From a virus: a stretch of DNA of 64,000 bases. Below are positions 12,415-46,869 of this stretch, piece after piece. The notes below the pieces were generated by a model, which saw nothing but the letters and a program-made list of their open reading frames with translations, ran no database searches and was not told the origin of the DNA. The stretch covers positions 3,346 to 67,345 of the IMG/VR virus record IMGVR_UViG_3300011116_000448; one strand, given 5' to 3'. Numbering within the stretch: position 1 is the stretch's first letter; each line of letters opens with the position of its first letter. The position numbers and the translations under genes are program-made.

Positions 12415-12422
12415 TGGATCAG

Positions 12423-15400: not shown

Positions 15401-18400
15401 CCTCAACCTTTACTTCAGCCTGTTCCTGCTTAGGTCTGTTGACCTCATCAAGGACACGATCTGCAAATACGTTGGGGCGGCGAGCCTCTGGCGGAACTTC
15501 CCTTGAGTTCTGTTCAAAGACCTCAGGACTGTCGTTGTACTCAAGAATGTCATCAAGTTTTTTGTAGCCAATGTCAGCAAACTCTTTATTCAATTGCTTG
15601 AAAGACTTTTCAAAAGCACTGAAAATCTTCTTCTGTTTGATGTCCTTGAAGTCCTTGATGTTGACGTTTAAATCGCCCTTAAGGTACTTGGCAAAGGCCA
15701 TAGCCTCCAAGTCCTCTGTACGGAAAGTACCAAGGTCTTTGGGGTTTACACCTTCCTGTGCACCATACCATTCACTGAAGAATTGCCTATTCTTGTTCAA
15801 AGCATCAATGGTCTTATCCGGAAGGAACTGCCGCATGTTCTTGTACCAAGTTGCCAACGCCTCTTCGTTAAGGTTCTTTGGTTTGTTGATGTTGAAGGCT
15901 GTGTGCAGCGAGGTCAACATGGCGTTAAACGTAGCCTTGTCCATCTCCTTACCCGAAAGCATCTTGTCAAAGCTTTGGCGGAATAGCTTGGACAAGCTAG
16001 GATGAACCTTGTTAAATGCGTTCTCAATTGTGTTGAGGAGCTTCACGCGGTTCATTACCTGCTCAGAGAACTTCTTGGTAGCCCTCATGATACGCGGCTT
16101 TTCACTGACCTTGACGTTGGCAGACATCTCAGCAAACTTCTTGAACATTTCATTCAAGGCTGGCCCAAGGTCTGGATTACGCTTAAGGAAGTCTGCGTTA
16201 CGTTCCATGGCAAGTTTGTCAACTTCGTCGTGAAGCTGGTTTAGAATCTGTTCAGACACGTCACTAAGTTTAGCTCTTTGTGGTGCTCTAGGCGTGCCTT
16301 TAAATGCCTTGGGGTCGTACCTAAATTCACCGGGCTTGGGTGAAGTATCAATAGTGTCAGCAAGCGTATCAGAGATAATAGGCTTGTTACGCTCTTTCCA
16401 GTAGCGATTGGCAATTCGACGCAGTTCATCCGTTGTCGTGTGCTTGTCTTCCAACATTCGCTTAAACAACGGAGACCTAAGAAGAGCTTCAATAACCTGA
16501 CTCTTCTTCAACTTTGGTGTAGCATTAGGTCCCGGCATGGTTGCAGCCTTGGCAAGAGCCTCTGCTGTCTGTGCGGGTTTGTATTCAAGCAAACCACGAA
16601 TAGCCATAGGATCACTTCGCATACCCGCGTAAGGACCAAAAGCTTCACCGTCAACAGGAGGTTCTTCAATAAACTTCCCACCGCGCGAAGTTACCTTATC
16701 AGGAGCCTTGGGGTAAATATCTTTAACACCAGTACTCTCGTTACGGCGCTGGATACGTACGTTTTCTTCTTGAACCTCTTTAAGCTTCTGTTTGTACTCC
16801 TTCAAAGCCTTGCGGTAGTCTCGCATGTCGGCTTCGTACTTTTTTGTAGCTTCTTTTGCACCAGCCCATTTCATTTCAGTAGAGGTAGGTGCGATAGGTT
16901 TAACAGGCTCTACTGGAAGGTCTAAGAGTTTTTGCTTAGGCACAGGCCCAGTTCTAAATACCTCAGATGGCTTTGCTTCGCTTTTAAAGTACTTACCCTT
17001 TTCAGGGATAAGAAGCCCATCAATCAATCCTGAGTTATTGAGTTCACTGCCCCATTTTTGCCCCACAGAAATACGAACTGGTGCGTGCGTGTACCCAAGC
17101 TCTTTAAGCGCCTGAAGCCTGTGATTACCTTCTCCAAGCTTGGCAGTACGAGAATCTGCACCCACGTTAACGATAAGAGGATTGTTTAGACCATTCTCCT
17201 GAATGTCCTTTTTTAACGCCTCCATTTCCTCGCGTGTCATCCGAAGTTTGTTCCCTTTGATTTTCTCAAGAAACTCAATAGGCACGTCTTCAATATATCG
17301 CGCGTAATTGTCCATGTCACTACGCTTACGTGTATTACCATCAAGGTCCTTCCAATAAGAACTTCTTTTTGGAGAACGAGGAACTCTATCCTCTCCGTAG
17401 AACGGTTGATTAATCGGAGGATTGCCGGGGCGCTTACGAATAAGTCCGTACTTGCTGGGTTTGATTACATCGTGATTAAATACAATAAATTGATCGCTTG
17501 TAGGTAGATCACTGAAAGGCATACGACCTTCCACATGTTCTTCGTATGAAGCAAAACCCTCTCTAATATCCAAAGCGTCGATATTGAGTTTTTGTAGCTT
17601 TGCCTTCATTTCGGCCATGCGCGCTCTTTGATCTGCAGCAGTGACCTTAGTACCTGCTTCATCTACACTGTCAAAATCAACAGCAAAATCTCTCATCATC
17701 TGATCTACGGCATCTTGTTTACGTGGCTTTGTTGTAGGGAATACCTGATGATCCATAGCAGTGCCATCAGGATGTACCCAAAAATCAGGATTACCTTTTT
17801 CACCACCAAAACGCGTATCGTCAAACTTGCGCATTGGTTCAGACATTCGATCTGTATAGCCGAGCATTTTAGCCAAACGCTGGGCATCTTCAAAAGTTTT
17901 AATTGTGAAGATACGCGCTGAAGGTTTAAGAAATGCCTTAATCTTTTCGGGATACGCTACGGCACGACGTGCTTCTGCATCTTGATCAAACCAGAATGAA
18001 TTAGGATTCTTTGAGAAATACGAAGAAAAATCACCAAATTCACTATAGTAATAAGCGCGTTTACCTGTCTGCGGATTAAATTCACCTGACTCATCAATAG
18101 CCTTGGCAGAATCAGGCATAGTACCGTGGTAAAGAATAATGGGTGCTCCATCATCAAAATGCGAAATAACATCCTCAGGACGTGCACCTTTTGAAGCGGC
18201 ATATTGTTTCTTTTCAGCTTCACTGCGACGTTTGTTCATCAACGTCTCTGCCAGCTTCTTACGGGGATTCTCACTAAGCATCTGGTTGGCAGCTTTGATG
18301 TTCTTGTTGATGCGCTCTTGGGCATCTGGACGCTTGTAGATTGAGCCGTACTGCTGTACGTCTTCCATCACTTTCTTGTCTACAAAGTTTTCAAAGTCTT

Positions 18401-20162
18401 CCATCACTTTCTTGCGAATCTCGTCAGGATACTTAGCACCTGCCTTATCAAGATCGCGCTGGACGTTAATACGATATAGCTTGTTGATCATATCGTCGGA
18501 GAAGTTACGGACAACTGTATCCTGATAACCAAACTGGTCAGTCAAAGCTGCCGCCTTGGTCAAGATCTTTTCGTCGTTGGAGTGTACCTGCGGCTGGTCG
18601 TCAATGTCTTTGTACATCACGCCATTAGGTGTACGCTTAAGGAAAGACTCACGCGAACGAACAAAGCTAGCCTTACGGGCTGCTTCAATAAGATCCCTGT
18701 CGCTTGGGGGTCTATTTAGATTTGTTTCAAAGTGGTTATAAAGATCACTGAGACCGTCGCGCTCCTCACCCTTCTTATCCTTGTACTTGATATTGCGAAG
18801 GTACTCAGCAGCCTGTACACGATCCGTAATACCGTAGTCGGCGTTAGGATCACGAATGATACCGCTTACCGGAGGAGGAAGAGCCGCCTGAGGTGTAGTC
18901 TGGTCGTACCCATAAATGATGTCTTCCTTCATGGTAGACGCAGCTTCGCTTACGGGACGCTCTGGACGAGGGTCTCCAAGGAAAGACGAATCAATAGGCT
19001 GGACAGGTGTCTTGGGTTTTGGCTGGTAACGATAGCCTTTGTAAAGACCAAAAGGCACACCTACAAGAGTACCCATGACCCCGGCATTGAAGTACTCGGC
19101 CTTGGCTTCGTCATCCAAAAGAGGCATATCGGCGTTCATGCGGGACAGGGCAGAAGTACCCATACCTACAAAAGCATTAGTACCTGCCACGTCAGCCATA
19201 TTGCCGAGGAGGCGTGTACTCATCTTGGACCCAAGGTCTACACCCCACTTTTCAAGGGTGTTAAGGACGGGTCCAGCAAAAATAATGGAGTCCACAGGAA
19301 TGGCCTGCAGTCCCGCTGCTACGGTCCCTAGGGTAGCTGCCTTGGTCCAATCAATGTGATCCTTGGGGTTCTCTACCCCCTGCTCTTTAAGGGCCTGAAC
19401 CTGCCTGTCAGCGAACTGGGCGATGGTTACGGGCGCAGTGACACCTGCAGCCCCAAAGAACGACCCTAGACGGGCAGCAGCGGTACCAGCCTTCATACCC
19501 GCTGATCCTGCCGCAAGGTAACCACCAGCACCACCACCAGCCAACGCTAGGCCCATGTAGGGCGCTCCTGCACCTATGGTCTGAAGGGCAAAGTCGTACA
19601 GCTTACCTTGGTCCCAAGCTGACTGAACGTCAGGGACAGTAAACTGACCGTAATTCTTTTGATAATCATTCTTAAGTTGGTCGGCGTATTCGTGCCATTC
19701 CTTGCCAAGGTTCTCCATACCCACTCCCTCAAGACTATAGGCTAGGGCACTGGAAAGCTCACTGGGCATACTGTAAAGGGTGGCACCTTTGGCTGCACCC
19801 CAAATACCGGGAGAGTTGTGGTCCCAGATGGCCTCCAGAACCTCCTCAGGCGTCTTGTCAGCGGGGGCATTGTACCGCTTACCGTCACCCGCAAACTCAT
19901 AGATAATCGTGTTAGGGTCCTTGCTAGAAGGTCCTACGGGCTTAAGAATCTGGTCAGGGGAATCTACTCCAAAGAACTGCTTGGAGAAAGCTTGGGGTTC
20001 ACCCGAAGAGGAACTACCTACTGCTGGCTCTTTACTTCTCTCGTTGAGTACCCCAAGGATTGATTCGTTAAAAGGGTCTGGATTCTGCCTCTGCGGGAAC
20101 GTAGCCTGCATGGCATTATCGACAACCCCTTGTGCAAAGGGACTCAACGGATCTGTAGCCAT
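12423..20162 (-). CDS. giant virion ejection/polyvalent protein containing ADP-ribosyltransferase-like and ParB/Srx-like domains
   Basis: 2579 aa, GGAGG SD, last large gene of the virion arm; Gly/Ala-rich hydrophobic N-terminal region; LYHGT...YFS...QFIVF (ART-like); DI.ENGL.NPL.V...EGNHRLQALKELG...PV (ParB-like). Confidence 0.75.
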   Translation of the reverse strand: MATDPLSPFAQGVVDNAMQATFPQRQNPDPFNESILGVLNERSKEPAVGSSSSGEPQAFSKQFFGVDSPDQILKPVGPSSKDPNTIIYEFAGDGKRYNAPADKTPEEVLEAIWDHNSPGIWGAAKGATLYSMPSELSSALAYSLEGVGMENLGKEWHEYADQLKNDYQKNYGQFTVPDVQSAWDQGKLYDFALQTIGAGAPYMGLALAGGGAGGYLAAGSAGMKAGTAAARLGSFFGAAGVTAPVTIAQFADRQVQALKEQGVENPKDHIDWTKAATLGTVAAGLQAIPVDSIIFAGPVLNTLEKWGVDLGSKMSTRLLGNMADVAGTNAFVGMGTSALSRMNADMPLLDDEAKAEYFNAGVMGTLVGVPFGLYKGYRYQPKPKTPVQPIDSSFLGDPRPERPVSEAASTMKEDIIYGYDQTTPQAALPPPVSGIIRDPNADYGITDRVQAAEYLRNIKYKDKKGEERDGLSDLYNHFETNLNRPPSDRDLIEAARKASFVRSRESFLKRTPNGVMYKDIDDQPQVHSNDEKILTKAAALTDQFGYQDTVVRNFSDDMINKLYRINVQRDLDKAGAKYPDEIRKKVMEDFENFVDKKVMEDVQQYGSIYKRPDAQERINKNIKAANQMLSENPRKKLAETLMNKRRSEAEKKQYAASKGARPEDVISHFDDGAPIILYHGTMPDSAKAIDESGEFNPQTGKRAYYYSEFGDFSSYFSKNPNSFWFDQDAEARRAVAYPEKIKAFLKPSARIFTIKTFEDAQRLAKMLGYTDRMSEPMRKFDDTRFGGEKGNPDFWVHPDGTAMDHQVFPTTKPRKQDAVDQMMRDFAVDFDSVDEAGTKVTAADQRARMAEMKAKLQKLNIDALDIREGFASYEEHVEGRMPFSDLPTSDQFIVFNHDVIKPSKYGLIRKRPGNPPINQPFYGEDRVPRSPKRSSYWKDLDGNTRKRSDMDNYARYIEDVPIEFLEKIKGNKLRMTREEMEALKKDIQENGLNNPLIVNVGADSRTAKLGEGNHRLQALKELGYTHAPVRISVGQKWGSELNNSGLIDGLLIPEKGKYFKSEAKPSEVFRTGPVPKQKLLDLPVEPVKPIAPTSTEMKWAGAKEATKKYEADMRDYRKALKEYKQKLKEVQEENVRIQRRNESTGVKDIYPKAPDKVTSRGGKFIEEPPVDGEAFGPYAGMRSDPMAIRGLLEYKPAQTAEALAKAATMPGPNATPKLKKSQVIEALLRSPLFKRMLEDKHTTTDELRRIANRYWKERNKPIISDTLADTIDTSPKPGEFRYDPKAFKGTPRAPQRAKLSDVSEQILNQLHDEVDKLAMERNADFLKRNPDLGPALNEMFKKFAEMSANVKVSEKPRIMRATKKFSEQVMNRVKLLNTIENAFNKVHPSLSKLFRQSFDKMLSGKEMDKATFNAMLTSLHTAFNINKPKNLNEEALATWYKNMRQFLPDKTIDALNKNRQFFSEWYGAQEGVNPKDLGTFRTEDLEAMAFAKYLKGDLNVNIKDFKDIKQKKIFSAFEKSFKQLNKEFADIGYKKLDDILEYNDSPEVFEQNSREVPPEARRPNVFADRVLDEVNRPKQEQAEVKVEEIKEAATEAGASSPPPNFKDPQTRSGRDSNDPFLRSEANNIGTAGGAMSFLFSVAKMARKHPIIGRVHNIFVKQKDVAANIDLAFTKQFDYVYKDLANKDMDKIIRAGDIIDHLRNTKQGIKEDTQGRIVFKDENDADVVLSKVDSDIVKGVSDFFKVGIREDMSVTRELLEHFRKEYNVGKDSSLLHLQDTIDNIEKLIKNNPLPEFRNKYVRDRDMLQEFHDQLKHSEALLARDVAYIPHMRFGDYVVWVKDRKTGNLVHMEVLDNTDNLLGLKTSALPSKKHADQKIDKLGLRKKYDPKDFELTHGQLTYNSAAKLIQKGMLSMELIQSLNATGLERNIELAHMLATGVKDPQSFMKAWSEDAGSTKNHIMRYVLAQGKGKYLMRAQDEPVISGYSRDWDHVMDAYKNTFKNSIARKATAMELAAAQKDIVLSDKVAPELKKYANNYVDYMLNPSTDYGALRNFNFFWTMGYRLSTAMLQIATLPTQAAGVLVGYTGNPLSAMSYLSKGISKLVKMQPGDKNSEFFNAHPGYFRQSMTEDAIAKEINTDYISHLGPGAKQAEKGFNFIKNNAGFFVSNTENFTRKSTFIAFRDMFKDSPEITRKAIKDLATDYDWQYFWDTNKTKMDVEDAMALYHMRLVHAEFGKTGRGPMQRGLFGTLAFPFMTYPQQMLELLFEQMTAKKGAAGVLAGLYTMGAYVAFSGLNGIPAYDLWKTLYEEYEEKVNGRMVDLNMQLEAAGMPEFLRRGALSTTFGLDMSSRLSQDIIGQNLLMGLLKDEIKIGEITGVPGRTLVEMMNGAADVLSGSSSKSALEKIQPFMPSVGKDVAKTAQMVTEPENYWKTKSGKILKDTNEDGTRPFDVLGQLTGFTPLEKTQERERLYMQQRANQEFTGWKSRLAERVATAEYLMYLGSTQDDNEKYQEGREMRADVTKDLREYAKANGIRLDSNFWRGFRSSVQERLWQKKNPGKIKKPTQQERRYQNILTRDKE

Positions 20163-20187: not shown

Positions 20188-23100
20188 TTAGTTAAAAAGA
20201 CTTGTCCCTTCTTCTTCAGGGTTTTTCAAGCCGTAACCTGCATTATTGACAATATCCAACCATTCCTGCGGAACAGGCTCACCTACACGGTCAGTCTGCC
20301 AACGCATAATAGCCTTTAGAATCTCATTCACACGAGTTTCCTTAGCGGTCAACCCTGCCTTCTGGCGTTCAAAGTCAAGCTGCATTTCCTTTTCTTGGAG
20401 TTTAGCAGCCTGCGCCTGACGGGCCAATTCAGCCTTGACGTTTGGATCAAGCGAGTCAACCATCGCATTAGTATACCGCATCTTGACGATTTCCTGCAGC
20501 TTCTCCGAGGCTTCTTGGCCCTTCTTAAGCTGTTCCTTATCGCGATCAGCCAACGAAGCCAAACCAGCTTCACCCAGCGCATTACCAAAGCTGCCCTTGG
20601 AGGCCAGAATGGAAAGACCAAGCTTCAGGAGGGGTTCATTGACGTTGTCAAACATACCAAAGACTGCCTGCTTCTTTGGCTTCGTCTGGGCGTCCATGTA
20701 CTCCCGAAGGCGATCTTTGTACAACTGACGCAGCATCGCGGCCTCAGGATCGTCGTCAACGACATCTCCACCGGGAGCACCGGGACCACCGCCCGTACCA
20801 CCTGTCGGATCAGCTTGCGCTCCCGCAGGAATCTCAGGTGCACCACCCTGTGGCGTACCAATCATGTCAGACATCTCGTTGTAGAAGTTATCCACCGGGT
20901 CACCAGAATTACCCCACTCACCAAGAGCGTCCATATAAAGATTGGGGTTTGGCTTGTAATCCCAGCCTTTTTCGTCTATTGGAAGGACAATCTTCTGGTC
21001 AGTAGGCACCCTGCCACTAGTCGAAGGAGTAATTCCAAGTCCCGGAATCTGAGACAAGAAATCATCCCAACGCCCAATGCCATTAGGATCTTTGGCGCGC
21101 TCCCGTGCTTTTTCAAATACACCGGGCTCCCGCGTCTTCCAATCAGCAGGGTTTTCAGGCATACGCAGGACGTTAGGTTCACGCGGCTGCTTCTTTGGGG
21201 TCGTTACCGTAGGCGACCCGATGACGTTGACCTTGTTAGAAGTCAAATCAGCCTTGTTACCCTTCGGGATGGACCGATAAAGGTCAATCTCGTCAGCAGT
21301 TACGTCAGGCGGAGGCGGCATTACGCTATCCCAGCTCTCAAGAGGAAGGACAAGACTGTCGTCACCATACTGACGCCTAAAGACTTCATCCCAATCTTCA
21401 AGAGGGAAGATCTGACTGTCTGATGAGTAAGCACCACCACCCTTTGAGAACTTCTTGATTAGACCGCCACCAGCAAAGCCCATACCACCTTTGGTGAAAG
21501 AGTCGCCAATGATGTCTATAGGATTGAATGTAGTCGTCCCACCACTAATGGTTTCACCTCCTCTAGAGGGATCATTCTGAGGAACAGCCCCACGCTCTGC
21601 AAGCATCTCGTCAATTGTCTTACCTGAATACTTTTCTCGAAGATTGTTGTAAGCTTTTTCCTTGTCTGCTCGGTAGTCATTAAAAGTGTACCCAGCTTTC
21701 TTTGTCCAAGGATTGCCTTTTGACTTAGCTGCACTCTTTAAACCAACTTCAACTAGAATATCTTTCATAGGCTTATCAGCCTTATCGTAAAGAGTCGGAA
21801 TAGCTTTTACTGCACCGTCAGGACCAAGATGGTGTGCAAGGTACAAGTTCATTTCTGTAATAGGCAAACCTGCCTTCTTCAACGTATTGTATGAAGTTGG
21901 TAGATAGAAATTCTTGTACACGTAAGCAGCAGCTTCAGCGCTTGGAAGATACTTTGCAAGTTCAGGATCACCGCTTTTGTACTTGTAAATATCCTGCTTG
22001 TTAACAGGACGAATATTTAGTTGTTCTCTGACAGCTTTAGGTACTTTCTTTACATAACCATTCCAAGTATCTGCTGTGTACTGGAACGGAGTAAAAGCAT
22101 GAGTACCCGCAAGAGTCATATCGGCGTCGTTCTTTGACAAGTCTTTGTTTTTAATAGAATTGTCCTGTTCGTTCATCTTGGTACCTTCAACAAAAAGGTC
22201 CTCGTTGACGTTATCCCACATCTTGGAGTTAGAATAACGCTTTACTTCCACGTCCCTAGGCACGCGTGAAGGATCTGCGTTGGGGTCCATAGGCAGGGAA
22301 TCAATGATGTCTTGTGGAGCACGAGAGGTCTGATTACGGGCCTGTGCTTTGGTAATTGTACCTTCACCTACAGAGTCAACTTTACCAAGAACGTCGTCAC
22401 GACCTAGGTTTTGGAAGTCCGGTTGAAACTTTCCAGCACTCGAATCCATTCCATGATAAAGCGCAGCAAGAGGATCTACCATCTCGGCAGGGACGCGAGC
22501 TTGGTTCTTTTCAAAGCTTTTTCCACCTTGAACAAAACCACCTTCCTGATAAGCGCGAGTATCCTTGTTATCGTACTTGCTTGCTCTTCCGGGACCAGTC
22601 AAACGACGCTTAGTCAGTTCTTCCAACGGTGTACCCGGAAGGTACTCGTACTCTTTACGCAGACGCTTGGCATCAATCAATTCCTGAGGGAATGCACGAC
22701 CTGAATCATTAAGATATCGCAAAGCATCTTCTTTACGCACGTCTGCTTCGTCAAACGGCAAAGGCTCGCCCATCTGCATGGAAAGCTCATTCATAGCCTT
22801 AGCTTTTGCTACATCTTTGGCAAGCGTAGTAATCATGGCATCAAGAGGATTGTTACTCTTAGGTGCTGCACCAACCTTCTTCAAACGCTCTTCCGTGGCG
22901 TCGTTGTTCTTCAAAAGAGGTTTGCGCTTGACGTAATCTTCCTGCTTCTGAATGTTCTTGATAAGCTTCATATCTTCGTTAAGATACGAAAGATCACCTA
23001 GTTCGTCACCGTAGCGTGGGTAATCGTTACGAATAACGTCTTGAAAGCCCCGCTGGGGAAGAGTACGTTTATCCAACCCAAGCATACGCAAGATGTCGTA

Positions 23101-24990
23101 ATGGCCTTTGTCATCCTCTGGAACGTTCAATTCCCAACCGTCGCCGGGACCAACCTTACCACCGCCTGCGTAACCTGACTGCTTACCGTCAATAACGTCT
23201 TGAAACGAATCAAACTGGGGAACACTTGAATTCCTCAACGGGGGTTGTCCAAATGTCTCCTGCATCATGCGGATCATTTCAGGATCTTTCATCCAATCTG
23301 GCATTGGTGGGTTTGGATTCATATGCTGTTCGTATTGACGACGAATTGCATCTTGATTGCCTAACTCCGGAGGTGACTGCTGCTCAAGCAATTTACCAAG
23401 AATATCCAAAGTCTTTGGATCAAGCATAGGAACAGACTTTGAAGAATCTTTGCGCTGGGGCGATACAAAACCACCTTTAGCGTACACGCTCAACGGCTGA
23501 TTAACCGGACCCTGTACCTCTGGACGCTGGAGCGTATTGCCCTGAAGCCCCATGGGGCCACCGGGACCGGGGATACCCGGCGCAAGCGGAACACGCTGCT
23601 GGCTCATCGGAGTGTACGTCTGGTTGAACTGCGGCATGGAGCTAGGTGCTCCGTAGCTGGGGTTCACCGTGTTCTGAGAAGGACGCGTGAACGAATTAAA
23701 GTTCATATTCTGAAGGAACGTATCCCAGTCAAAAGCCTGACGTGGCTGCACAGCAGGAAGAACCTGCGGCTGCTTTGTAAGACCTTTGGAATCTCGGTAG
23801 CCCTGAATAAACTTGGAACCTTTAGAGCCAAAACGCTGCAAACGCTCGCCCTCGTCCATTTCATCAAAATCAGCCATGCGGTTCATTCTGGAAGAAGTCA
23901 TAAGACCTCCAAGACCATGAGTCTGACCGTCTTCTTTAGCCTGATCCAAGTACTCCATAGTGGCTTCTAAGGGGTCCATGCCAGCCATCATACCAAGTCC
24001 AGCTTTGACCATACCACCATTAGCGTAACCTTTGATTAGACCACCTGTCGCAATCTTATTTACAGGTGCACCCGGTCTGTCTGTTGTTTGCTGCCCTAGC
24101 GCACTTGCCCCTGCGCCAAGTCCTGCTAGCGCAGCCGGATTACCACTCATGATGCCCGCTGCTGCAAGCCCAATACCCGCAAGGGTCTTGATCGGAGAGT
24201 CACTCTGGGTCGTTTCAGTCGTATTTGTCTTTGTAAAGAGATCGCGTGGATACTGTGCAGCAATAGTACTAAGGAACGAAGCTTTGTTTAGATCGTCCTG
24301 ATCTTCGCGCATGAACTCCGAATAACCAAAGTCAAGACCAGCCTGATTACGGGTTCGTTCAGTTAATCCCGTACTCATAAGACGCTGAATATCACCTGTA
24401 TTGTAATTCTGGGCACCTTGAACATTCTGAATAGCACCACTAATATTGGCGCGTTGGTTATCCTGCGCCCTAAACCAAGTGTTCATGCCTTTGTCGTAAG
24501 CATCTGCGTAAGTAGAACCCGAAAGATCACGGGCGCTCTTCAGAAGCTCTCCAAGGTTAGCCCCTTCAAGGACACCGTGACGAAGACCGCCAAAAGCCCC
24601 CGACATACCTGCCGTGGAGCCAATCTTGGTCATGTTGATGTCTGACTGCTCCTGCAGACGATCAAGAGAGTTACCAAGGACGTAGTTTACGTAAGGATTA
24701 ATAAACTGAGTAGCGTCAGGTGTTGCATTGTTCATCAAATCCTGACTAGACTGCATAGCCATGTTGACGACAGGCTGATACATACCTGCCTGTGAGCCCG
24801 CTGCGCCAATACCTGCTTGTTCGTTAGCACTTAGTTCAGCAATACGTGGTGCTGTATACTGATTAAAGCCCTGCGTTCCTGCAGCCTCCGCACGTCCCAG
24901 AGCCATGTTGATAAAGTTCTGGTAGTTCTGAGGAACCTTAGTACTCGACGTACTGGTGGATTTGGTTTTAGATTCAAAAAGACTACCCAA
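20188..24990 (-). CDS. 1600-aa virion ejection (DNA transfer) protein with lytic transglycosylase-like domain and repeated [YF]xxGG motifs
   Basis: Pilot-protein-like N-terminus (FINPY, GAFGG.R); FQYT..TW...LYLAHHLG..GA lysozyme-like segment; directly follows the GNAT gene. Confidence 0.7.
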   Translation of the reverse strand: MGSLFESKTKSTSTSSTKVPQNYQNFINMALGRAEAAGTQGFNQYTAPRIAELSANEQAGIGAAGSQAGMYQPVVNMAMQSSQDLMNNATPDATQFINPYVNYVLGNSLDRLQEQSDINMTKIGSTAGMSGAFGGLRHGVLEGANLGELLKSARDLSGSTYADAYDKGMNTWFRAQDNQRANISGAIQNVQGAQNYNTGDIQRLMSTGLTERTRNQAGLDFGYSEFMREDQDDLNKASFLSTIAAQYPRDLFTKTNTTETTQSDSPIKTLAGIGLAAAGIMSGNPAALAGLGAGASALGQQTTDRPGAPVNKIATGGLIKGYANGGMVKAGLGMMAGMDPLEATMEYLDQAKEDGQTHGLGGLMTSSRMNRMADFDEMDEGERLQRFGSKGSKFIQGYRDSKGLTKQPQVLPAVQPRQAFDWDTFLQNMNFNSFTRPSQNTVNPSYGAPSSMPQFNQTYTPMSQQRVPLAPGIPGPGGPMGLQGNTLQRPEVQGPVNQPLSVYAKGGFVSPQRKDSSKSVPMLDPKTLDILGKLLEQQSPPELGNQDAIRRQYEQHMNPNPPMPDWMKDPEMIRMMQETFGQPPLRNSSVPQFDSFQDVIDGKQSGYAGGGKVGPGDGWELNVPEDDKGHYDILRMLGLDKRTLPQRGFQDVIRNDYPRYGDELGDLSYLNEDMKLIKNIQKQEDYVKRKPLLKNNDATEERLKKVGAAPKSNNPLDAMITTLAKDVAKAKAMNELSMQMGEPLPFDEADVRKEDALRYLNDSGRAFPQELIDAKRLRKEYEYLPGTPLEELTKRRLTGPGRASKYDNKDTRAYQEGGFVQGGKSFEKNQARVPAEMVDPLAALYHGMDSSAGKFQPDFQNLGRDDVLGKVDSVGEGTITKAQARNQTSRAPQDIIDSLPMDPNADPSRVPRDVEVKRYSNSKMWDNVNEDLFVEGTKMNEQDNSIKNKDLSKNDADMTLAGTHAFTPFQYTADTWNGYVKKVPKAVREQLNIRPVNKQDIYKYKSGDPELAKYLPSAEAAAYVYKNFYLPTSYNTLKKAGLPITEMNLYLAHHLGPDGAVKAIPTLYDKADKPMKDILVEVGLKSAAKSKGNPWTKKAGYTFNDYRADKEKAYNNLREKYSGKTIDEMLAERGAVPQNDPSRGGETISGGTTTFNPIDIIGDSFTKGGMGFAGGGLIKKFSKGGGAYSSDSQIFPLEDWDEVFRRQYGDDSLVLPLESWDSVMPPPPDVTADEIDLYRSIPKGNKADLTSNKVNVIGSPTVTTPKKQPREPNVLRMPENPADWKTREPGVFEKARERAKDPNGIGRWDDFLSQIPGLGITPSTSGRVPTDQKIVLPIDEKGWDYKPNPNLYMDALGEWGNSGDPVDNFYNEMSDMIGTPQGGAPEIPAGAQADPTGGTGGGPGAPGGDVVDDDPEAAMLRQLYKDRLREYMDAQTKPKKQAVFGMFDNVNEPLLKLGLSILASKGSFGNALGEAGLASLADRDKEQLKKGQEASEKLQEIVKMRYTNAMVDSLDPNVKAELARQAQAAKLQEKEMQLDFERQKAGLTAKETRVNEILKAIMRWQTDRVGEPVPQEWLDIVNNAGYGLKNPEEEGTSLFN

Positions 24991-24993
24991 GGT

Positions 24994-25515
24994 TTAAGTA
25001 ACTCCCTCCGGAATATACAGGGTTTTGAAGCCTATATTCTTGAACCCCTTAAAGCCCAAATACCGTGACATTCGGTTCTGGTCGTTAGTCGAGTCCATAT
25101 TGAAAATGTCAAGCAGCAACGGTGCACCTACACCATTAGCAAAGTCTTTTGTGATGTCCAGAAGGCGCTCTTGGATACGGTATCCTTTGCGGTATTCCGG
25201 GGTTACAAAAAAGACAAGATTTGTAAAAAAGCTTTGATTGCTCCACCAAAGTGTGGTAGACCCAAGCACAATTGTTCCCACAATTATATCATCTTCGTTA
25301 AGAGCCAAAAGGGCAACCCCCCGATTATCAACGATGATTTCCTTAATAACTTGGGCAGTAAGGGGGATATCCTGAGGAGCCAGCTTTTCTAGATGGTTCT
25401 CTTTCTCAACGCGATTCAAGAAAAGCGAAAGACCTACTACGTCATCCGGCGTAGCATTTCGGTAGGTAATACCTTTGTAGGTGTACATTTGCTTAGAAAA
25501 CTCCCTCTTGTTCAA
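24994..25515 (-). CDS. GNAT-family acetyltransferase (virion-associated)
   Basis: YRNATPDD, FFVTPEYRKG and GF motifs; usual position before the ejection genes. Confidence 0.8.
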   Translation of the reverse strand: MNKREFSKQMYTYKGITYRNATPDDVVGLSLFLNRVEKENHLEKLAPQDIPLTAQVIKEIIVDNRGVALLALNEDDIIVGTIVLGSTTLWWSNQSFFTNLVFFVTPEYRKGYRIQERLLDITKDFANGVGAPLLLDIFNMDSTNDQNRMSRYLGFKGFKNIGFKTLYIPEGVT

Positions 25516-26080
25516 ATTTGTTGCTTTTTGTTCTGTTCTCTATGAACGTGAGTATTTGTAAATTCCACGGAACGTGCAGTCCGCTAACTATTTTACCCCG
25601 TAAAGGTACAATATGATCTACATGATGTTGAACCCCCGTTATTTCTGTTAACCTTTGAGCCTCGGTGTAAAAGCCTGTAATCTCCATAAGTTGTTCAGGT
25701 GTCAGCCAATTAGGGGTTCGTCTAGTTTTACGTTCTTTGTAGTTCCTTTTCCAAGCCCGGTCTTTATCCCTATTTTCCTCTCTATACCTTTTCTGGTACT
25801 CAAGGACTTTCTCTTTATTGCTTTGATAATACTCTCGTTTGTAAGCCAAATCCGCCTCAAGTCGTCGCTGGCGATTCATCTCATTTTTAATGAGTATTTT
25901 ACCCTTATTTTTTACGTACTGTATGGGGTACCGCTCTCGCGCTTTTAATTTGCGACAAGCAGTGCAAGTACCTGTTGCAGTTACTCTTTTTTCAAAATGC
26001 CCTAGCTTACAAGGTTTTTCCGAGTAATAGAATTTTTCATTTGCAATTTGAGCGAGGTATCTATTACTTCGAGCGACCAT
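25493..26080 (-). CDS. HNH homing endonuclease
   Basis: KPC..GH..R.....C..C N-terminus; TP.WL; HVDHIVPL.G..VSGLHVPWNLQIL...N..KSN; AT-rich, overlaps both neighbours. Confidence 0.9.
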   Translation of the reverse strand: MVARSNRYLAQIANEKFYYSEKPCKLGHFEKRVTATGTCTACRKLKARERYPIQYVKNKGKILIKNEMNRQRRLEADLAYKREYYQSNKEKVLEYQKRYREENRDKDRAWKRNYKERKTRRTPNWLTPEQLMEITGFYTEAQRLTEITGVQHHVDHIVPLRGKIVSGLHVPWNLQILTFIENRTKSNKFEQEGVF

Positions 26081-26354
26081 CTTTTATAAGGGTATCCAAA
26101 GGTGCAGGTTGCTGTGTCTTGCCCATTTTTATACGCCTAATCTCTTTCACTAGAGAATCTAAGATTTTGGCCCCTGCGTCAGTATTACCATCTCCGAGCA
26201 AAGATACTGTTTGCGCGTCAATAACATACTCACCTTCAGACAGGGCTGCTGGCTGGTTTCCGTTAATACTTGCAGGAACGTCATCCTTCATCCCCGTAGC
26301 AGGGGTATTCTTGTGGATGTTCTTGATAAGCTTCATAATGGCGGATTTGTTCAT
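26064..26354 (-). CDS. small conserved phage structural-module protein (G..D..PA.LS.GE.V domain)
   Basis: TGMKDDVPA...AALSEGEYVIDA..VS.LGDG.TDAGAKIL; I recognise this motif from phage internal/tape-measure proteins. Confidence 0.7.
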   Translation of the reverse strand: MNKSAIMKLIKNIHKNTPATGMKDDVPASINGNQPAALSEGEYVIDAQTVSLLGDGNTDAGAKILDSLVKEIRRIKMGKTQQPAPLDTLIKDGRSK

Positions 26355-26357
26355 TTT

Positions 26358-26618
26358 TTAGGGCAACTTTCCTGATTCTTGCAATTGCACCAACAAGGTG
26401 CCTAGTACCTTTCGGGTTTCGTCCAAAGTAGCTGTAGTTGGGTCCAAAGCGTAGGTAGGGGTATTGTTTGTGACAACAATACGCTCCTTGGCAAAAGGCT
26501 GCTCTGGCATACGTTCAAGCACACCTTCAATGGCCCTGACCAATTGAATAAGATAATCGTAGACCTCGTCGTTCTTCTTTTCAAACTTCTTGTTGGGCTG
26601 GGGTAGTCTGACTCTCAT
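26358..26618 (-). CDS. small tail-associated protein
   Basis: Position immediately after the nozzle gene; RLP.P...L..LVR.IE pattern. Confidence 0.55.
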   Translation of the reverse strand: MRVRLPQPNKKFEKKNDEVYDYLIQLVRAIEGVLERMPEQPFAKERIVVTNNTPTYALDPTTATLDETRKVLGTLLVQLQESGKLP

Positions 26619-26622
26619 TTTC

Positions 26623-28434
26623 TTAACGCTCTCCGTCGGGCATTATACCTGCCCGCCACTTACCCATTCGGAAGTTACTTAGGGCACTGGAAACCTCTAC
26701 ACGGAGCGCCATTTGGCGTCCTTTGCCCCGAAGGGAGATTTTCTTGGTATCTGGACCAATAGTGTAGGGACCTTTGATGACCGGGCTCTCGCTTGGGTGC
26801 TTTTTGATCTTGATATACGCGCGCATGTACGCACCCTCAAGTTCACTGACATCGGGGATTATGCGGTCAATAAAGGTCATTGGTTGACCATCTTCAATGT
26901 CAAAGTAGCCTGACTCAATAAAGGCACCCAATTCCTGACCGTTGGCATCGTGACCAAACTCATGACTGTAGGCAGCTTCACTAGTAGCCGTGGCAATAGG
27001 GTAGTCAAATAAATTGGAGTCAACCCAAGTAGTGCGGTCAAGAGCACCGTAATTCCACGTACCTTCCATGTAATTATAGGTAATATAGCGGTTATTTTCA
27101 GTAGAGCCAAAGGTAGGGTAAAACCACCAAATTTCGTTAAATTCCGAGTTTACGCCGACGTAGATCTTTTCCTTTTGATCGTAGTTAATAGCGTATTCAG
27201 AATCCGGTTCAAAGATGCTTTTGTGGAGCGAGCAGGGCAAATTCTGGACCGTACCGTCGTACTTAAAAAATGACCGTTTACCCATCCAATAGACGGTTCC
27301 ATTTACGTCAATGGCAGCATTTGGGCCAATAAGACCACAAGCAATGCCAACTCGATCTTGAGTGAAGTAAAATGGTGCACCCCGGTATGTTACTGCGTGA
27401 GCCCCTTCATCGGTAAAGGCGACGATTTCCTTTTTTGATTTTACGGCCCCGACAACGTAAGATCCTGAGTTGAATCGGAAGCCCCCAGCCGCGTTAGTAA
27501 CTGCCGGGGACCAAATAGCGTAGTTTTCTTGTTGAGACCAACGACCTACAAGAGGGTCAAAATCGCCATTAAACGCACTGGTTCCAAACAACATCATGTG
27601 ACGCGCTTCTTCACTAATCAACATAACATTGCTTCGGGTAGGGATATCTACGTGGGCAATAGAAGCTCTTGTAGCCAAACCATCTGATTTATCCCAACGA
27701 TAAACCGCACCACCGCGAAGAAGCGCAAGTAAATCTTCACCCCAAGTGTCAAAGGTCCACAGCCGCATGTTTGTAATCAATGACCCAGTTGTACCTGTTC
27801 CGTAGACACCACTTCCATACGTACCGGAACCGTACCCCGTTGTCGGCTCGTTGTTCTGTTTACCTGTCTGCAACAAATAGGTAATTGTCGCAGGGCCACC
27901 TATTTTTGTCTTTGCAGTTGTATTTGCAATAGAGCAATTACCGTTAATTGAAACAACAAAGTTATTGGTGTTAGCAGAGACAACTTCAAGAACACCGTAG
28001 ATATCAAAACCAGCGTCACTGACTGACGTGAATGCTACGTAGTCACCTGCTACTGCTTGGTGCCCTGCGTCAGATACTTTGACTAGCGTAGTGTTTGATG
28101 CATAAGTACTAAATGCAGAAGTTTCACTTACTACTGCTCGCGCGGGAGTAACGTCACTCCAAGCACCTGCGTTGTAGATAAACAAACCTTTGTGTGTGCC
28201 AAGAGCGTAAAACTTGTCACCGTCAAGAGCAGCCCAAGTAAGAGCCTCTCTTGCAACACCACGATAATTACCCGTTGCAACAAGTGGAGTCCAGCCTCCA
28301 AGCTTCTCTACGTTACCTTTGTGAAATCGAATTTTATCACCATCAACCCACTGCCCCGTAGCTTGGTACGAAGTGATGTCGGTGTTGATACCGTTCTGAA
28401 TTTCTATGGGTTTAAGTTTGGTATCTCCGGGCAT
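26623..28434 (-). CDS. tail nozzle / stabilisation protein (P22 gp10 / T7 gp12-like)
   Basis: GI..D.T.Y...G.W.D.DK.RF..G..EK.GGW, LW..D.WGEDL, RWS.QE, E.WWFYP, C-terminal PDG.R; beta-propeller-like. Confidence 0.8.
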   Translation of the reverse strand: MPGDTKLKPIEIQNGINTDITSYQATGQWVDGDKIRFHKGNVEKLGGWTPLVATGNYRGVAREALTWAALDGDKFYALGTHKGLFIYNAGAWSDVTPARAVVSETSAFSTYASNTTLVKVSDAGHQAVAGDYVAFTSVSDAGFDIYGVLEVVSANTNNFVVSINGNCSIANTTAKTKIGGPATITYLLQTGKQNNEPTTGYGSGTYGSGVYGTGTTGSLITNMRLWTFDTWGEDLLALLRGGAVYRWDKSDGLATRASIAHVDIPTRSNVMLISEEARHMMLFGTSAFNGDFDPLVGRWSQQENYAIWSPAVTNAAGGFRFNSGSYVVGAVKSKKEIVAFTDEGAHAVTYRGAPFYFTQDRVGIACGLIGPNAAIDVNGTVYWMGKRSFFKYDGTVQNLPCSLHKSIFEPDSEYAINYDQKEKIYVGVNSEFNEIWWFYPTFGSTENNRYITYNYMEGTWNYGALDRTTWVDSNLFDYPIATATSEAAYSHEFGHDANGQELGAFIESGYFDIEDGQPMTFIDRIIPDVSELEGAYMRAYIKIKKHPSESPVIKGPYTIGPDTKKISLRGKGRQMALRVEVSSALSNFRMGKWRAGIMPDGER

Positions 28435-30018
28435 TTAAGTAGCGTTCACCCGATCCACCCAACCATTACATAGAATAGAAGCGCTGGCACCGCTAGCATT
28501 ATTGCCGCTAATATAATAAATTGAAGTACTTTCAAGAACTATTTCACAAGAATACAACACTGGTGCTGTACCGCTTCCAGTTGAACCTGCAAAACCCGAA
28601 CTAAACGTTGCCGTATATCCTACATCGTTATTGGGGAATACCCAAGTAGAAGAGTTTGTAGCGCCCGAATTTCCTACGCTAAGTAAAATAGAACGGGCTG
28701 TACTTGGTACTTTTTGAGCACCGCCTGCACCTGTAGTGCCTGCTGCAGTCAACGCAGTTTTACTTGCATTTGTTGACACAGAAAAACTAATTGGAGCAGT
28801 AACCGTCGTACCCGCACCCACAACGTATTGTGCACGATTACCGATTTGACGAATACGTAGAAAAGTTGCTGCACCTCCGGTCATAAAACAACCAATGCGG
28901 TATTTAAATCCTCCGCTATACCCAGTAGGCAATGTGGGTGATGTTGCTGAAAGAGACATCAAAGAACCTGCACCAGTGCCGTCAGATTTAGCAATCAACC
29001 AAATATGGTATTCAGTATTATTTGCCAAAGAGCCTGTATCTAAACGATTAATTGCCGCATTAGTAGAGCAATCACAAGTGTAATTGCCTGACACAACAGA
29101 AAGCCCCTGCCCCGCAGCATTAACAAGAACAGCTTGATCAAAAGTTATTGTTACGTTTGTTGTTGCGCCACCATTCACAATTAATAGATTTGAAACACCG
29201 GGAAGCGCAGGACCTATAGCATAACCTGGAACTTTTTTTGGTGCTGCCGCTGAGGCGTCATATGAAAGAAAAAAGTCTGCCCCGTGGTCTGGGGAAGAGT
29301 CAGCAGTAAGAACGTTCAAACCCTTCATTGCATTATTAAATGTAGTTGTTCTAGCTGTTGATGTCGATTGATCAAAAATAACAAAACCGTCCGAGACAGC
29401 AACAGAAGGTTCGTCAGGAAAATCTGAAACAGCATTTTTAAAGAAAGTAGACACTGGTACTTTATTCAATGCACCATTTTCACTTGCATCAATAAAAGGT
29501 AAAAAATCAGCACCTGCACCACCAGTAGCGTCAGTAGCTACGTTAGAGACGGCTGCAATAACTGCTGACGTAAATGCATTGAACGCACCAATGGACACCG
29601 TACGAAGTACTTCACGCACATTTGTACCGTCAGAAACCACAAGGCCTTGCTCTAGTCCCGAACCACTGCCAGAAAAATCCACACCAACCGTACCACCTGT
29701 GTTTTTCAATGTGACTTTATTAGCACCCGTCATCTTGTTACGGATAAGGTAAAAGCTCTGGACAGCAGGGGCAAAAAGACTTACGTTGGACGTAGGTGCA
29801 CCCGTAAGGACAATCTGGGACCTGCGTCCCTGATCGGTAGCACCATTTTGAGTACTCAGTACAGAATCGCCTGCTGTCGTCATTGCAACGCAAACAAGAC
29901 CAAAGCACTCGTCAATCATGTCAATCGTATTGGTATTCAGATACCCGCCCCACGTATTGGAGTTTTCTCCGGGGTTCTGTTTTTCAAGACGCTTGCGTGT
30001 GGTAAATGAACTGGTCAT
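28435..30018 (-). CDS. tail fibre/spike protein
   Basis: N-terminal LEKQ..GENS.TWG...NTN anchor motif; G.LDTGS.A..T.YH.W.I...S.SA..P.LP.GY distal domain. Confidence 0.7.
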   Translation of the reverse strand: MTSSFTTRKRLEKQNPGENSNTWGGYLNTNTIDMIDECFGLVCVAMTTAGDSVLSTQNGATDQGRRSQIVLTGAPTSNVSLFAPAVQSFYLIRNKMTGANKVTLKNTGGTVGVDFSGSGSGLEQGLVVSDGTNVREVLRTVSIGAFNAFTSAVIAAVSNVATDATGGAGADFLPFIDASENGALNKVPVSTFFKNAVSDFPDEPSVAVSDGFVIFDQSTSTARTTTFNNAMKGLNVLTADSSPDHGADFFLSYDASAAAPKKVPGYAIGPALPGVSNLLIVNGGATTNVTITFDQAVLVNAAGQGLSVVSGNYTCDCSTNAAINRLDTGSLANNTEYHIWLIAKSDGTGAGSLMSLSATSPTLPTGYSGGFKYRIGCFMTGGAATFLRIRQIGNRAQYVVGAGTTVTAPISFSVSTNASKTALTAAGTTGAGGAQKVPSTARSILLSVGNSGATNSSTWVFPNNDVGYTATFSSGFAGSTGSGTAPVLYSCEIVLESTSIYYISGNNASGASASILCNGWVDRVNAT

Positions 30019-46845: not shown

Positions 46846-46869
46846 AAATTTTTTCCCTTTAGTACACAA

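Follow-up and report, generated by a model that had tools for sequence, protein, structure and literature searches.

The ejection or core proteins of podoviruses, namely T7 gp14-gp15-gp16 and P22 gp7-gp16-gp20, are increasingly large products of late genes that follow the tail genes. To our knowledge, the way in which podoviruses select, store and order the proteins that they inject is poorly understood, and the few targeting signals known are single terminal tags. The encapsulin cargo-loading peptides and the T4 capsid-targeting sequence are short peptides of glycine and hydrophobic residues that lie in flexible regions and bring proteins into an HK97-type shell. Polyproteins of adenovirus and African swine fever virus are cut at GG-X sites by cysteine proteases of clan CE. 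The crAss001 protein gp45 is reported to be a cargo protein whose compact C-terminal domain is located on the portal inside the capsid and whose N-terminal parts extend into the tail (PMC10172136). Polyvalent proteins of phages and plasmids (Iyer et al. 2017) are very large multi-module proteins that are delivered with the DNA and often contain ParB-like, GNAT and lysozyme modules, and processing by an embedded zincin peptidase has been proposed for them; the words ‘glycine’ and ‘linker’ do not occur in the main text of that paper (PMC5512222).

The locus described here is part of a 67-kb virus contig from IMG/VR that also carries adaptor genes of the SU10 type, and the whole stretch of 64,000 nucleotides that was analysed is referred to as the window. 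Our tentative reading is that the contig belongs to an uncultured tailed phage, that the locus is a cassette of ejection (internal virion) proteins and that its 1600-aa product is an N-terminal domain (the N-domain) fused to clade-specific modules which include spacers, an SLT-like module and a C-terminal part. The cassette resembles the podovirus systems in having increasingly large late genes after the tail genes, one product with a candidate wall-cutting module (the SLT lead) and an N-domain that matches PHROG 4287, whose distant relative in phage phiM5 (gp27) is annotated in its GenBank record as ‘detected in phage particle proteome’. By analogy, the cassette proteins may be located in the virion. 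On the other hand, neither sequence nor fold comparison linked the cassette to an ejection protein of known structure, and we know of no T7 or P22 counterpart of two of its features, a domain of about 75 aa that we call the GEYV domain and a repeated GG motif.

Encapsulin and T4 tags are single and terminal, whereas five to ten internal motif copies are present here. The Gly-Gly core, the upstream hydrophobic residue and the position at module junctions are shared with adenovirus and African swine fever virus processing, but no protease was found in 77 ORFs of the window and the tandem, C-terminal and intradomain copies misfit cleavage. The neighbouring 2579-aa protein, with its ParB_N-like segment (scoring below the Pfam cut-off), recalls the polyvalent proteins; this is however the sole effector-like segment, and HExxH is absent from both the 1600-aa and the 2579-aa proteins. 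Like the compact domain of crAss001 gp45 (PMC10172136), the GEYV domain is usually C-terminal, in its case in the first cassette protein. In a feature search (Atlas), the nearest named cluster to the GEYV protein was PF25725 crAss_CARG1 with a score of 0.84, which is a lead only. Identity with a crAss cargo protein was not supported, as the complete 67-kb record contains no match to PF25725 even at E<=10 and no structural match to a PDB chain was found; the 96-aa protein itself also gave no match by hmmscan at this threshold.

Gene order and modules of the cassette

The layout described in the original prediction, with GNAT and HNH genes between the 1600-aa and 96-aa reading frames, was confirmed (Table 1). 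The window and two related loci (L085 and L086) share the order 603-aa protein, 86-aa protein, GEYV protein, N-domain protein and giant protein, with homologues of the 2579-aa protein following the orthologue of the 1600-aa protein in L085 and L086. A GNAT homologue is located between the GEYV gene and the motif-rich ejection gene in all five cassettes of this type (window, L085, L086, L005 and L084), and none was found in the remaining related loci by tblastn, which is insensitive for divergent GNATs. The HNH gene between the GEYV and GNAT genes is a sporadic insertion, being present in the window and L086 and absent from L085, L005 and L084.

Table 1. Features of the cassette, all on the minus strand (positions in the window; aa numbering of the 1600-aa protein).
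Feature	Position	Strand	Basis
2579-aa giant protein, after the ejection protein	12423..20162	-	ParB_N-like segment; single loose GG match
1600-aa putative ejection (internal virion) protein, fused modules	20188..24990	-	14 orthologues at E<=3.6e-97
Triple tandem FTKGGMG-FAGGGLI-KKFSKGGG, aa 1165-1187	21430..21498	-	sequence scan
Candidate SLT-like lytic transglycosylase module, aa ~900-1140	21571..22293	-	Atlas feature search
Motifs YQEGGFV and FVQGGK, aa 814-825 (YQEGGFV(QGGK))	22516..22551	-	sequence scan
Motif YAGGGKV, aa 607-613	23152..23172	-	sequence scan
Motif YAKGGFV, aa 503-509	23464..23484	-	sequence scan
Tandem motifs IATGGLI (24034-24054) and YANGGMV (24007-24027), aa 313-328	24007..24054	-	sequence scan
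N-terminal ‘ejection’ domain, aa 1-312	24055..24990	-	PHROG 4287 ‘DNA ejection protein’
GNAT-like acetyltransferase gene	24994..25515	-	PHROG 1249 acetyltransferase, E 1e-9
HNH endonuclease gene	25493..26080	-	PHROG 1035 endonuclease VII, E 6.3e-22
96-aa stand-alone GEYV-domain protein, first gene of the cassette	26064..26354	-	ORF; 31 small homologues
86-aa ORF directly upstream of the GEYV gene	26358..26618	-	homologues at the same place in L085 and L086
603-aa virion structural protein, upstream border of the cassette	26623..28434	-	PHROG 3287, E 2.6e-67

The TTG start of the 1600-aa reading frame is backed by a conserved N-terminus in the orthologue alignment. Residues 5-292 align with positions 4-320 of the 392 positions of the PHROG 4287 profile (E 2.1e-8), which is also matched by two natural fusions of the GEYV domain with the N-domain (P0094 and P0106). 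Of 43 related loci, 38 encode their N-domain homologue as a separate protein of 257-357 aa. The AF2 model of P0106 contains two helices (318-358 and 363-441, pLDDT 80-90), and the N-domain is thus predicted, from a homologue, to form long alpha-helical hairpins; the best hit in a fold search with this model was to BAR-like long helices, at E 0.43. An S74 chaperone identity for the N-domain, taken from the annotations of tblastn matches, was ruled out. In phiM5 gp27, the N-domain matches a region near the N-terminus (locus 4001-4225, aa ~142-216), the S74-like sequence of gp27 is C-terminal by reading of the alignment and lies away from this match, and no PF13884 (Peptidase_S74) match was found in the 1600-aa protein.

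Downstream of the N-domain, the spacers at aa 330-502 and 511-606 are rich in proline (10-14%), glutamine (10-11%) and methionine (7%). For aa ~900-1140, 22 of 30 matches in the Atlas feature search fell in SLT clusters with a score of 0.92, and nothing was found in Pfam, phmmer or profile searches against the PDB, so that the lysozyme-like or SLT identity of this module is only a lead. Among the segments named in the original prediction, the pilot-like N-terminus (as the ejection domain) and the Pro/Gln/Met-rich spacers were recovered, and the lysozyme-like part keeps the status of a lead. Searches with the whole protein found no match in cultured phages (tblastn at 1e-5) and, by HMM in the other loci, just the N-domain plus four weak matches that we take to be motif-driven. 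Since only the N-domain is matched elsewhere, the middle and C-terminal modules are clade-specific. The idea of a protein fused from modules that are encoded separately in other phages is supported for the N-domain.

The GEYV domain and the GG motif

The 96-aa reading frame contains the sequence ...GMKDDVPASINGNQPAALSEGEYVIDAQTVSLLGDGNTDAGAKIL... and was found to represent the GEYV domain in minimal form; a profile of this domain, which is about 75 aa long, matched 13,574 protein clusters (E<=1e-3). The domain consists of a beta-hairpin (VPAxI / PAALS), the segment GE[YF]VIPADVV, a helix-loop-long helix arrangement and a basic tail, and its invariant residues are acidic (D, E and D). Both the domain and the motif are carried by cultured Caulobacter phages (GB2A, RW and KcrB) and by Planktothrix phage Pag-Yong1. 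Stand-alone copies of the domain are not rare, as 21 of the best 148 matches are of stand-alone size (<=130 aa). Pfam, PHROG, NCBIfam and the PDB gave no family match to the domain. Its AF2 models are of moderate quality (pLDDT 77.7 and 64.4), and fold searches reached a best E of 6.4 against the PDB (Foldseek) and a best Z of 2.2 VIA-wide. In the literature searched we found no description of the domain and no experimental study of any member of the family.

In Caulobacter phage GB2A, the stretch that contains the motif and the GEYV domain (aa 477-580) matches PHROGs 25241, 6090, 3547 and 5448 with E 8e-8 to 1e-5. These are tape measure families; the GB2A matches to them are confined to this stretch, and the window proteins gave no match to any of the four.

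All the motifs listed in the original prediction were found in the 1600-aa protein. The pattern [YF]xxGG occurs eight times compared to 0.97 +/- 0.99 in shuffled versions of the protein (5000 shuffles; maximum 6, none reaching 8). In a six-frame scan of the window with [YFM]xxGGx[VILMG], 14 matches were found, and six of the eleven that lie in open frames of at least 80 codons fall in the 1600-aa protein. The motif is also conserved among orthologues, with five to ten copies in each of the 14 (15 clade proteins including that of the window). Tyrosine or phenylalanine precedes the GG dipeptide at -3 in 115 of 309 cases, against a background of 6.8%. Positions that played no part in selecting the instances are likewise biased, with alanine at -2 in 62, valine at +3 in 66 and lysine at +4 in 44 of 145 instances. 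Lysine or arginine is frequent at -5, -4, -1, +2 and +4 and glutamate occupies -1 in 27/145, giving a consensus of roughly K-x-[YF]-A-x-G-G-x-V-K; the motifs of the window are less basic than this consensus.

Motif cores were more conserved than their flanks at all nine sites. The values for IATGGLI/YANGGMV are 0.61/0.68 in the core and 0.50/0.39 in the flanks, and the triple tandem is the best conserved motif block, with GG columns at 0.80-0.97. Tandem copies are spaced 7-9 aa apart, and the codon listing showed no long DNA repeats behind the motifs. The motifs are located at the borders of inserted or variable modules, and their number and position vary between orthologues. An inserted DUF6321 domain, for which no literature was found, is bordered by the motif on both sides in P0038 and P0042. 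A search of titles and abstracts found no published description of the motif.

The motif is coupled to the GEYV domain. A hydrophobic-xx-GG motif lies 15-60 aa upstream of the domain in 83 of the 104 relatives with at least 50 aa upstream of it, compared to 70 of 419 control windows. On this count, the rule given in the original prediction, by which the domain follows an A.GG motif within one protein, proved right, and the 96-aa copy of the window indeed has no upstream motif of its own. By reading of the alignment, 15 of 31 close small homologues carry a K-x-A-x-GG insert between DDVPAxI and QPAALSEGEYV, where it occupies the hairpin turn or loop of the domain. Other copies lie 2-7 residues from extreme C-termini (e.g. 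...YMDGGRV), and three tandem motifs follow the GEYV domain in natural fusions. In the AF2 models of both a cis member and a natural fusion, the motif is unpacked beside the domain at a pLDDT of about 50 (range ~40-68); the motifs thus lie in low-confidence linkers that are probably disordered. The possibility that each GG motif is followed by half a GEYV domain in degenerate form (e.g. ...ARVPAEMVDPLAALYHG) was ruled out, because an HMM of motif plus domain scored the 1600-aa protein and its 14 orthologues at best between -4.7 and 0.6, below the top score of 3.3 among 300 shuffled sequences.

Gene order and fusions couple the GEYV domain to the N-domain as well. As a rule, the gene after that of the GEYV domain encodes this helical domain of about 290 aa. 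Among 72 related loci, 45 have an N-domain homologue no more than 1.5 kb downstream of the GEYV domain, and five more were detected by HMM. The two domains are fused in nine of the best 148 matches. Upstream, a homologue of the 603-aa protein is found in 43 of the 50 loci for which 6 kb or more of upstream sequence is available. A protein of 640 aa (P0260) matches this genome solely through its GEYV domain, at the 96-aa gene. Together with the motif found in cis, this gene order and these fusions support the proposed functional link of the large ejection protein with both the small GEYV protein and the GG motif.

Possible roles of the motif

We tentatively favour the reading that the motifs are uncleaved, multivalent docking elements of the ejection-protein cassette. 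The GEYV domain and the motifs would keep the ejection proteins in place and in order on a shared receptor in the virion, for which the portal, the core or the GEYV domain itself are candidates, and the proteins would then leave through the tail. The motifs lie at the joints between modules, in what would be flexible linkers. Their low-confidence, unstructured placement is that of short linear motifs, the copies near the domain, in its hairpin turn and at C-termini are in exposed places, and within the window the motif is nearly confined to the cassette protein. Docking, the absence of cleavage and a place in the virion are inferred. Against docking, AF2 sets the motif neither on the GEYV domain nor on the N-domain. 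Twenty of 38 stand-alone N-domain proteins of other phages have no motif and the rest have one to three loose matches; because most of these proteins lack it, the motif is not needed for incorporation of the N-domain. Two runs of complex prediction for the 96-aa protein and residues 1-345 of its 1600-aa neighbour each gave a score of 0.00 and, being without controls, weigh neither way.

An extension of the docking reading, in which K-x-[YF]-A-x-GG-x-V-K is a cargo-handling code in a large group of aquatic tailed phages, appears unlikely at present. The reader of the peptide would be the GEYV domain, or the portal or core that anchors this domain, and the code would serve to load, stack and order the proteins for their exit through the tail, with the GNAT of the cassette tuning the reading by lysine acetylation where motifs are many.

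The original prediction had offered binding in trans and proteolysis as mechanisms. The functional association that it proposed stands, but strand complementation does not appear in the AF2 models and no peptidase family was found in 77 ORFs. Binding in trans, by which the GG peptides complement the GEYV domain as a strand or peptide and the small protein acts as an adaptor or chaperone, would account for the coupling of motif and domain in cis, for the three tandem motifs in the fusions and for the adjacency or fusion of the GEYV and ejection genes. It would also fit the division within the clade of the window, where the small protein has no motif or an optional one and its neighbour has five to ten, and the pairing of acidic invariant residues with a Lys-rich motif. 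The unpacked motif in both the cis member and the fusion, the single domain set against 8-10 motifs and the many domain-bearing phages with motif-free N-domain proteins speak against it, and we regard it as improbable.

The motif may instead be a flexible hinge with no partner, made of Gly-Gly between small hydrophobic anchors, that survives at the recombination joints of a mosaic protein. Its position in low-confidence linkers at the borders of variable modules and its differing number and position among orthologues would be expected of a hinge, yet a hinge needs no conserved aromatic residue at -3, alanine at -2, valine at +3 or lysine at +4. Conservation from Caulobacter and Planktothrix phages to thousands of metagenomic clusters and the fixed place before the GEYV domain are left unexplained, which makes this account doubtful.

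That the motifs are protease sites which split a polyprotein into separate ejected products is quite unlikely. The location at module junctions, the N-domain as a separate gene in 38/43 related loci and the residues conserved on both sides of GG are consistent with cleavage. No peptidase family was found, however, in 77 of 78 ORFs selected within the window, a search that covered the window's own genes; protease-named PHROG matches were confined to the 306-aa capsid protein, where they cover the capsid portion of families that fuse capsid and protease, and both HExxH and Cys are absent from the 1600-aa and 2579-aa proteins. Tandem copies 7-9 aa apart also fit cleavage poorly, and the copies at extreme C-termini and within the hairpin loop of the GEYV domain weaken this reading further.

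Finally, it is very unlikely that the Lys-rich motifs form patches in contact with DNA or the capsid and that lysine acetylation by the neighbouring GNAT sets their charge and so tunes storage and release of the protein, as the GNAT gene in 5/5 cassettes of this type (none found by tblastn in other loci, a search insensitive for divergent GNATs) and the frequent K/R are offset by the gene neighbourhood being the sole basis, the less basic motifs of the window, Glu at -1 in 27/145 instances and the many other substrates of GNATs.

A conserved domain and a conserved linear motif, both absent from curated family libraries, make the cassette recognizable in thousands of uncultured aquatic phages. 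The GEYV domain can serve to annotate the gene with which the ejection module begins, and a peptide of ~9 residues and a domain of ~75 residues provide mutable handles for tests of encapsidation and ejection order. Should the motif prove to work as a loading tag that can be moved between proteins, foreign proteins could be packaged into phage heads with its help. If it is a cargo code, it would be a phage counterpart of the encapsulin cargo-loading peptides, so far unnamed, in more than ten thousand protein clusters.

Conservation of the GG motif in the ejection protein

All of the GG motifs listed in the original prediction for the 1600-aa ejection protein were found where it placed them. [YF]xxGG itself occurs eight times in this protein, a number reached in none of 5000 shuffles of its sequence (mean 0.97, sd 0.99, maximum 6). 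Of the 11 motif matches that a six-frame scan of the window placed in long open frames, 6 belong to this protein. Orthologues conserve the motif too: each of the 14 that were recovered (E 0 to 3.6e-97, 31-61% identity), like the window protein, has 5-10 copies. Tyr or Phe occupies position -3 in 115 of the 309 GG dipeptides of these 15 proteins, compared with a background of 6.8%. Positions outside the selection are biased as well (Ala at -2 in 62, Val at +3 in 66 and Lys at +4 in 44 of 145 instances), and tandem copies are spaced 9 or 7 residues; the resulting consensus is roughly K-x-[YF]-A-x-G-G-x-V-K. Each of the nine sites in the window protein has a motif core that is more conserved than the flanking 20-25 residues on each side. 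In the database homologues P0038 and P0042, the motif is located at the borders of a DUF6321 insert.

The N-terminal segment of the 1600-aa protein (N-domain, aa 1-312), predicted to be pilot-like, matches PHROG 4287 'DNA ejection protein' (E 2.1e-8), and the Pro/Gln/Met-rich spacers between motifs were likewise confirmed. The module at aa ~900-1140 was unrecognised by Pfam and PDB sequence searches; for this module the Atlas feature search points to SLT lytic transglycosylases (22/30 matches, 0.92). Apart from the N-domain, relatives of the protein were detected solely within its own clade. The C-terminal part (aa 1428-1571; 20275-20706, minus strand) has weak similarity (pairwise E 0.003) to aa 91-217 of the N-domain segment of the homologue P0050; there are hints that the core of the ejection domain may be repeated inside the 1600-aa protein.

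Of the 43 loci examined, 38 encode the N-domain homologue as a separate protein of 257-357 aa; 20 of these 38 proteins have no GG motif and the others have 1-3 loose matches. Because the N-domain mostly stands alone and natural GEYV/N-domain fusions occur, the 1600-aa protein is a fusion specific to its lineage, in which the usual second gene of the cassette is joined to additional modules, and the joints carry the motif. In the AlphaFold2 model of one natural fusion (P0106), the N-domain is predicted confidently (pLDDT 80-90) and very long helices span residues 318-358 and 363-441; PDB matches to the N-domain model were generic helical hairpins only.

The GEYV domain and its association with the motif

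The 96-aa GEYV protein has 30-31 small homologues of 85-167 aa. Searched against 1.84 billion proteins, a profile of these recovered 13,574 cluster representatives at E<=1e-3, of which 9,624 also pass E<=1e-10. Among the best 148 new matches, 21 have up to 130 aa, 87 have 131-400 aa and 40 are longer, with the domain mostly C-terminal. The AlphaFold2 model (92 sequences; mean pLDDT 77.7, above 90 in the helical part) consists of a beta-hairpin (VPAxI / PAALS), GE[YF]VIPADVV, a short helix, a GNGN loop, a long helix and then a basic tail. It had no fold match in the PDB (best Foldseek E 6.4, best VIA-wide Z 2.2).

The original statement that the domain normally follows an A.GG motif was upheld: of the 104 relatives with enough upstream sequence, 83 have a hydrophobic-xx-GG motif 15-60 residues ahead of LSxGE[YF]V, 61 of them in the strict form [YFM]AxGG, compared with only 70 of 419 control windows from the same proteins. 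The window copy lacks an upstream motif, as originally noted. From the alignment, a K-x-A-x-GG insert occurs exactly at the hairpin turn in 15 of the 31 closest homologues. Zinc-ribbon-like CxxCGG...CxxCGG inserts directly adjoin A.GG motifs in the small homologues P0004, P0031 and P0065, and in the first two CxxCGG inserts are also found in the hairpin turn. In the GenBank record MW202675 (L084, 3835-4416), a 193-aa protein contains a tandem pair of divergent GEYV-like units, ...HVASGSYVIPADIISAMGEG... and ...VAAGGEYVIPPEDVERLGGG..., and an x-GG motif precedes each of them. The virus record does not encode the homologue P0260 (640 aa), whose match to the 96-aa gene is confined to its GEYV domain. 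The idea that post-motif stretches are decayed GEYV domains was rejected by an HMM test against shuffles.

No curated family covers the domain or the motif: the domain had no Pfam match even at E<=10, and none was found in PHROGs, NCBIfam or PDB sequences. Of the 120 longer relatives listed, one is named 'RTX toxin-like' at source; the others carry 'hypothetical protein' or bare gene-call strings. Among cultured phages, the domain was found only in Planktothrix/Synechococcus phages (Pag-Yong1, Pra-JY27, MinM2), four Caulobacter phages and a few unclassified records, where it is inconsistently annotated as 'calcium-binding', 'solute-binding' or 'tape measure'. Literature searches by domain peptide strings, 'DUF6321' and ejection protein/polyprotein/podovirus, which covered articles without their supplements, found no description, and the words 'glycine' and 'linker' are absent from the main text of the polyvalent-protein paper (Iyer et al. 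2017, PMC5512222). As a system, the cassette is of a known kind; the GEYV domain and GG motif appear undescribed.

Gene order and composition of the ejection cassette

The IMG/VR record (67,345 bases) is 70% complete by CheckV estimate, and a complete late module lies on the minus strand of the 64-kb window.

Features of the late module and ejection cassette (window coordinates unless a related locus, L-number, is named)
Feature	Position	Strand	Basis or remark
Small terminase	46279-46869	-	
Large terminase	44193-46004	-	
880-aa ORF	between terminase and Cpn10-like ORF	-	portal position
Cpn10/GroES-like ORF	40884-41333	-	Pfam E 8.5e-6; PHROG 3188 E 1.8e-9
306-aa major capsid protein	37565-38485	-	
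Two paralogous SU10_adaptor ORFs	30025-30705 and 35320-36030	-	Pfam PF24175
Fibre-like proteins	after adaptor paralogues, before 603-aa protein	-	
527-aa fibre-like protein	28435-30018	-	Mtd second domain (PF21916), 24.5 bits vs cut-off 24.6
603-aa virion structural protein	26623-28434	-	PHROG 3287, E 2.6e-67
96-aa GEYV ORF	26064-26354	-	
HNH endonuclease gene	25493-26080	-	L086 640-1173
GNAT-like acetyltransferase gene	24994-25515	-	L085 4470-4988; L086 1176-1658; L005 8269-8718; L084 4426-4920
1600-aa protein	20188-24990	-	
2579-aa protein	12423-20162	-	ParB_N-like segment, aa ~945-1031
246-aa ORF, PAS fold	11770-12510	-	PF08448, E 1.5e-9

The phage neck seems related to that of phage SU10, because of the two adaptor paralogues, the second of which scores slightly below cut-off (26.9 vs 27 bits). 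The Cpn10/GroES-like ORF is placed between the ORF in portal position and the capsid genes. After the 603-aa protein the order is an 86-aa ORF, the GEYV ORF, the HNH endonuclease, the GNAT-like acetyltransferase, the 1600-aa protein and the 2579-aa protein. The ParB_N-like segment of the last was detected below the Pfam cut-off (E 0.0045) and by PHROG ParB/methyltransferase families (E 5e-10 and weaker), and the protein resembles the 'polyvalent' injected proteins of Iyer et al. 2017 (PMC5512222). Directly behind this giant virion protein lies the PAS-fold ORF, a domain unusual in a phage late module.

The GEYV and 1600-aa genes do belong together, as predicted. Of 80 IMG/VR loci encoding the GEYV domain, 72 extend 1 kb or more downstream of it, and in 45 of these an N-domain homologue (aa ~26-250 of the 1600-aa protein, by tblastn) starts within 1.5 kb after the domain; five more loci were added by HMM. 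The upstream side is covered by 6 kb or more of DNA in 50 loci, and 43 of these contain a homologue of the 603-aa protein there. One-protein fusions of GEYV domain, tandem motifs and N-domain were found in 9 of the 148 best matches and in four further loci. The GG motif and GEYV domain together mark the ejection cassette.

In five cassettes (window, L085, L086, L005 and L084) the gene for a small GEYV protein precedes that for a long, motif-rich N-domain fusion, and the GNAT gene lies between the two in all five. In the other loci tblastn, an insensitive test, found no GNAT homologue. The GNAT gene is not a chance insertion. The HNH gene overlaps the GEYV and GNAT genes at their ends. It occurs in the window and L086 only and is missing from L085, L005 and L084, which makes a mobile homing-endonuclease insertion probable. 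By coordinate arithmetic, the 86-aa and GEYV ORFs share a reading frame in the window (26354-26618, minus strand), parted by a stop codon and one codon; they are also in frame in L085 (3862-4467) and out of frame in L086.

Possible roles of the motif

The motif is short and multivalent, its invariant GG has conserved residues to either side, and it is set in disordered or variable sequence. It is exposed in linkers, at loop tips and at termini, is restricted to the proteins of one functional module, and behaves like a short linear interaction motif. We therefore propose, tentatively and at somewhat less than even probability, that the motifs serve, uncleaved, as docking elements by which the ejection proteins are tethered to a common virion receptor and ordered on it.

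That the GEYV domain binds the motifs specifically is unlikely. Strand complementation in trans, as originally suggested, was unsupported in two AlphaFold2 models: in P0085 the motif beside the domain has a pLDDT of ~50, and in the natural fusion P0106 the pLDDT drops from 68 to less than 50 along the three tandem motifs that follow the domain. We give a similarly low probability to the motifs being partner-less hinges at recombination joints. Protease sites, the other original suggestion, are somewhat more doubtful still. Cleavage is the less likely reading because no peptidase family was found in 77 of the 78 ORFs selected in the window, and because the protease-named PHROG matches cover only the capsid portion of capsid-protease fusion families. 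A host protease, or one encoded in the 3.3 kb outside the window, could still cut at the motifs. Both giant proteins lack HExxH and cysteine by sequence check. Motif copies occur in tandem 7-9 residues apart; in 3 of 199 proteins they lie only 2-7 residues from the C-terminus (a Caulobacter phage protein ends in ...YMDGGRV), and they are also found inside the hairpin of the GEYV domain itself. A basic patch regulated by the GNAT protein is very improbable.

For the docking proposal, a model is offered by the crAss001 cargo protein gp45, whose C-terminal domain is described as portal-bound (PMC10172136); the likeness is a functional analogy only, as the Pfam family built on gp45 has no match here. 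By this analogy the GEYV domain would be the C-terminal anchor of the first cassette protein, present here as a free small subunit, and the docking motifs would tether the ejection proteins to the common receptor and set their order on it.
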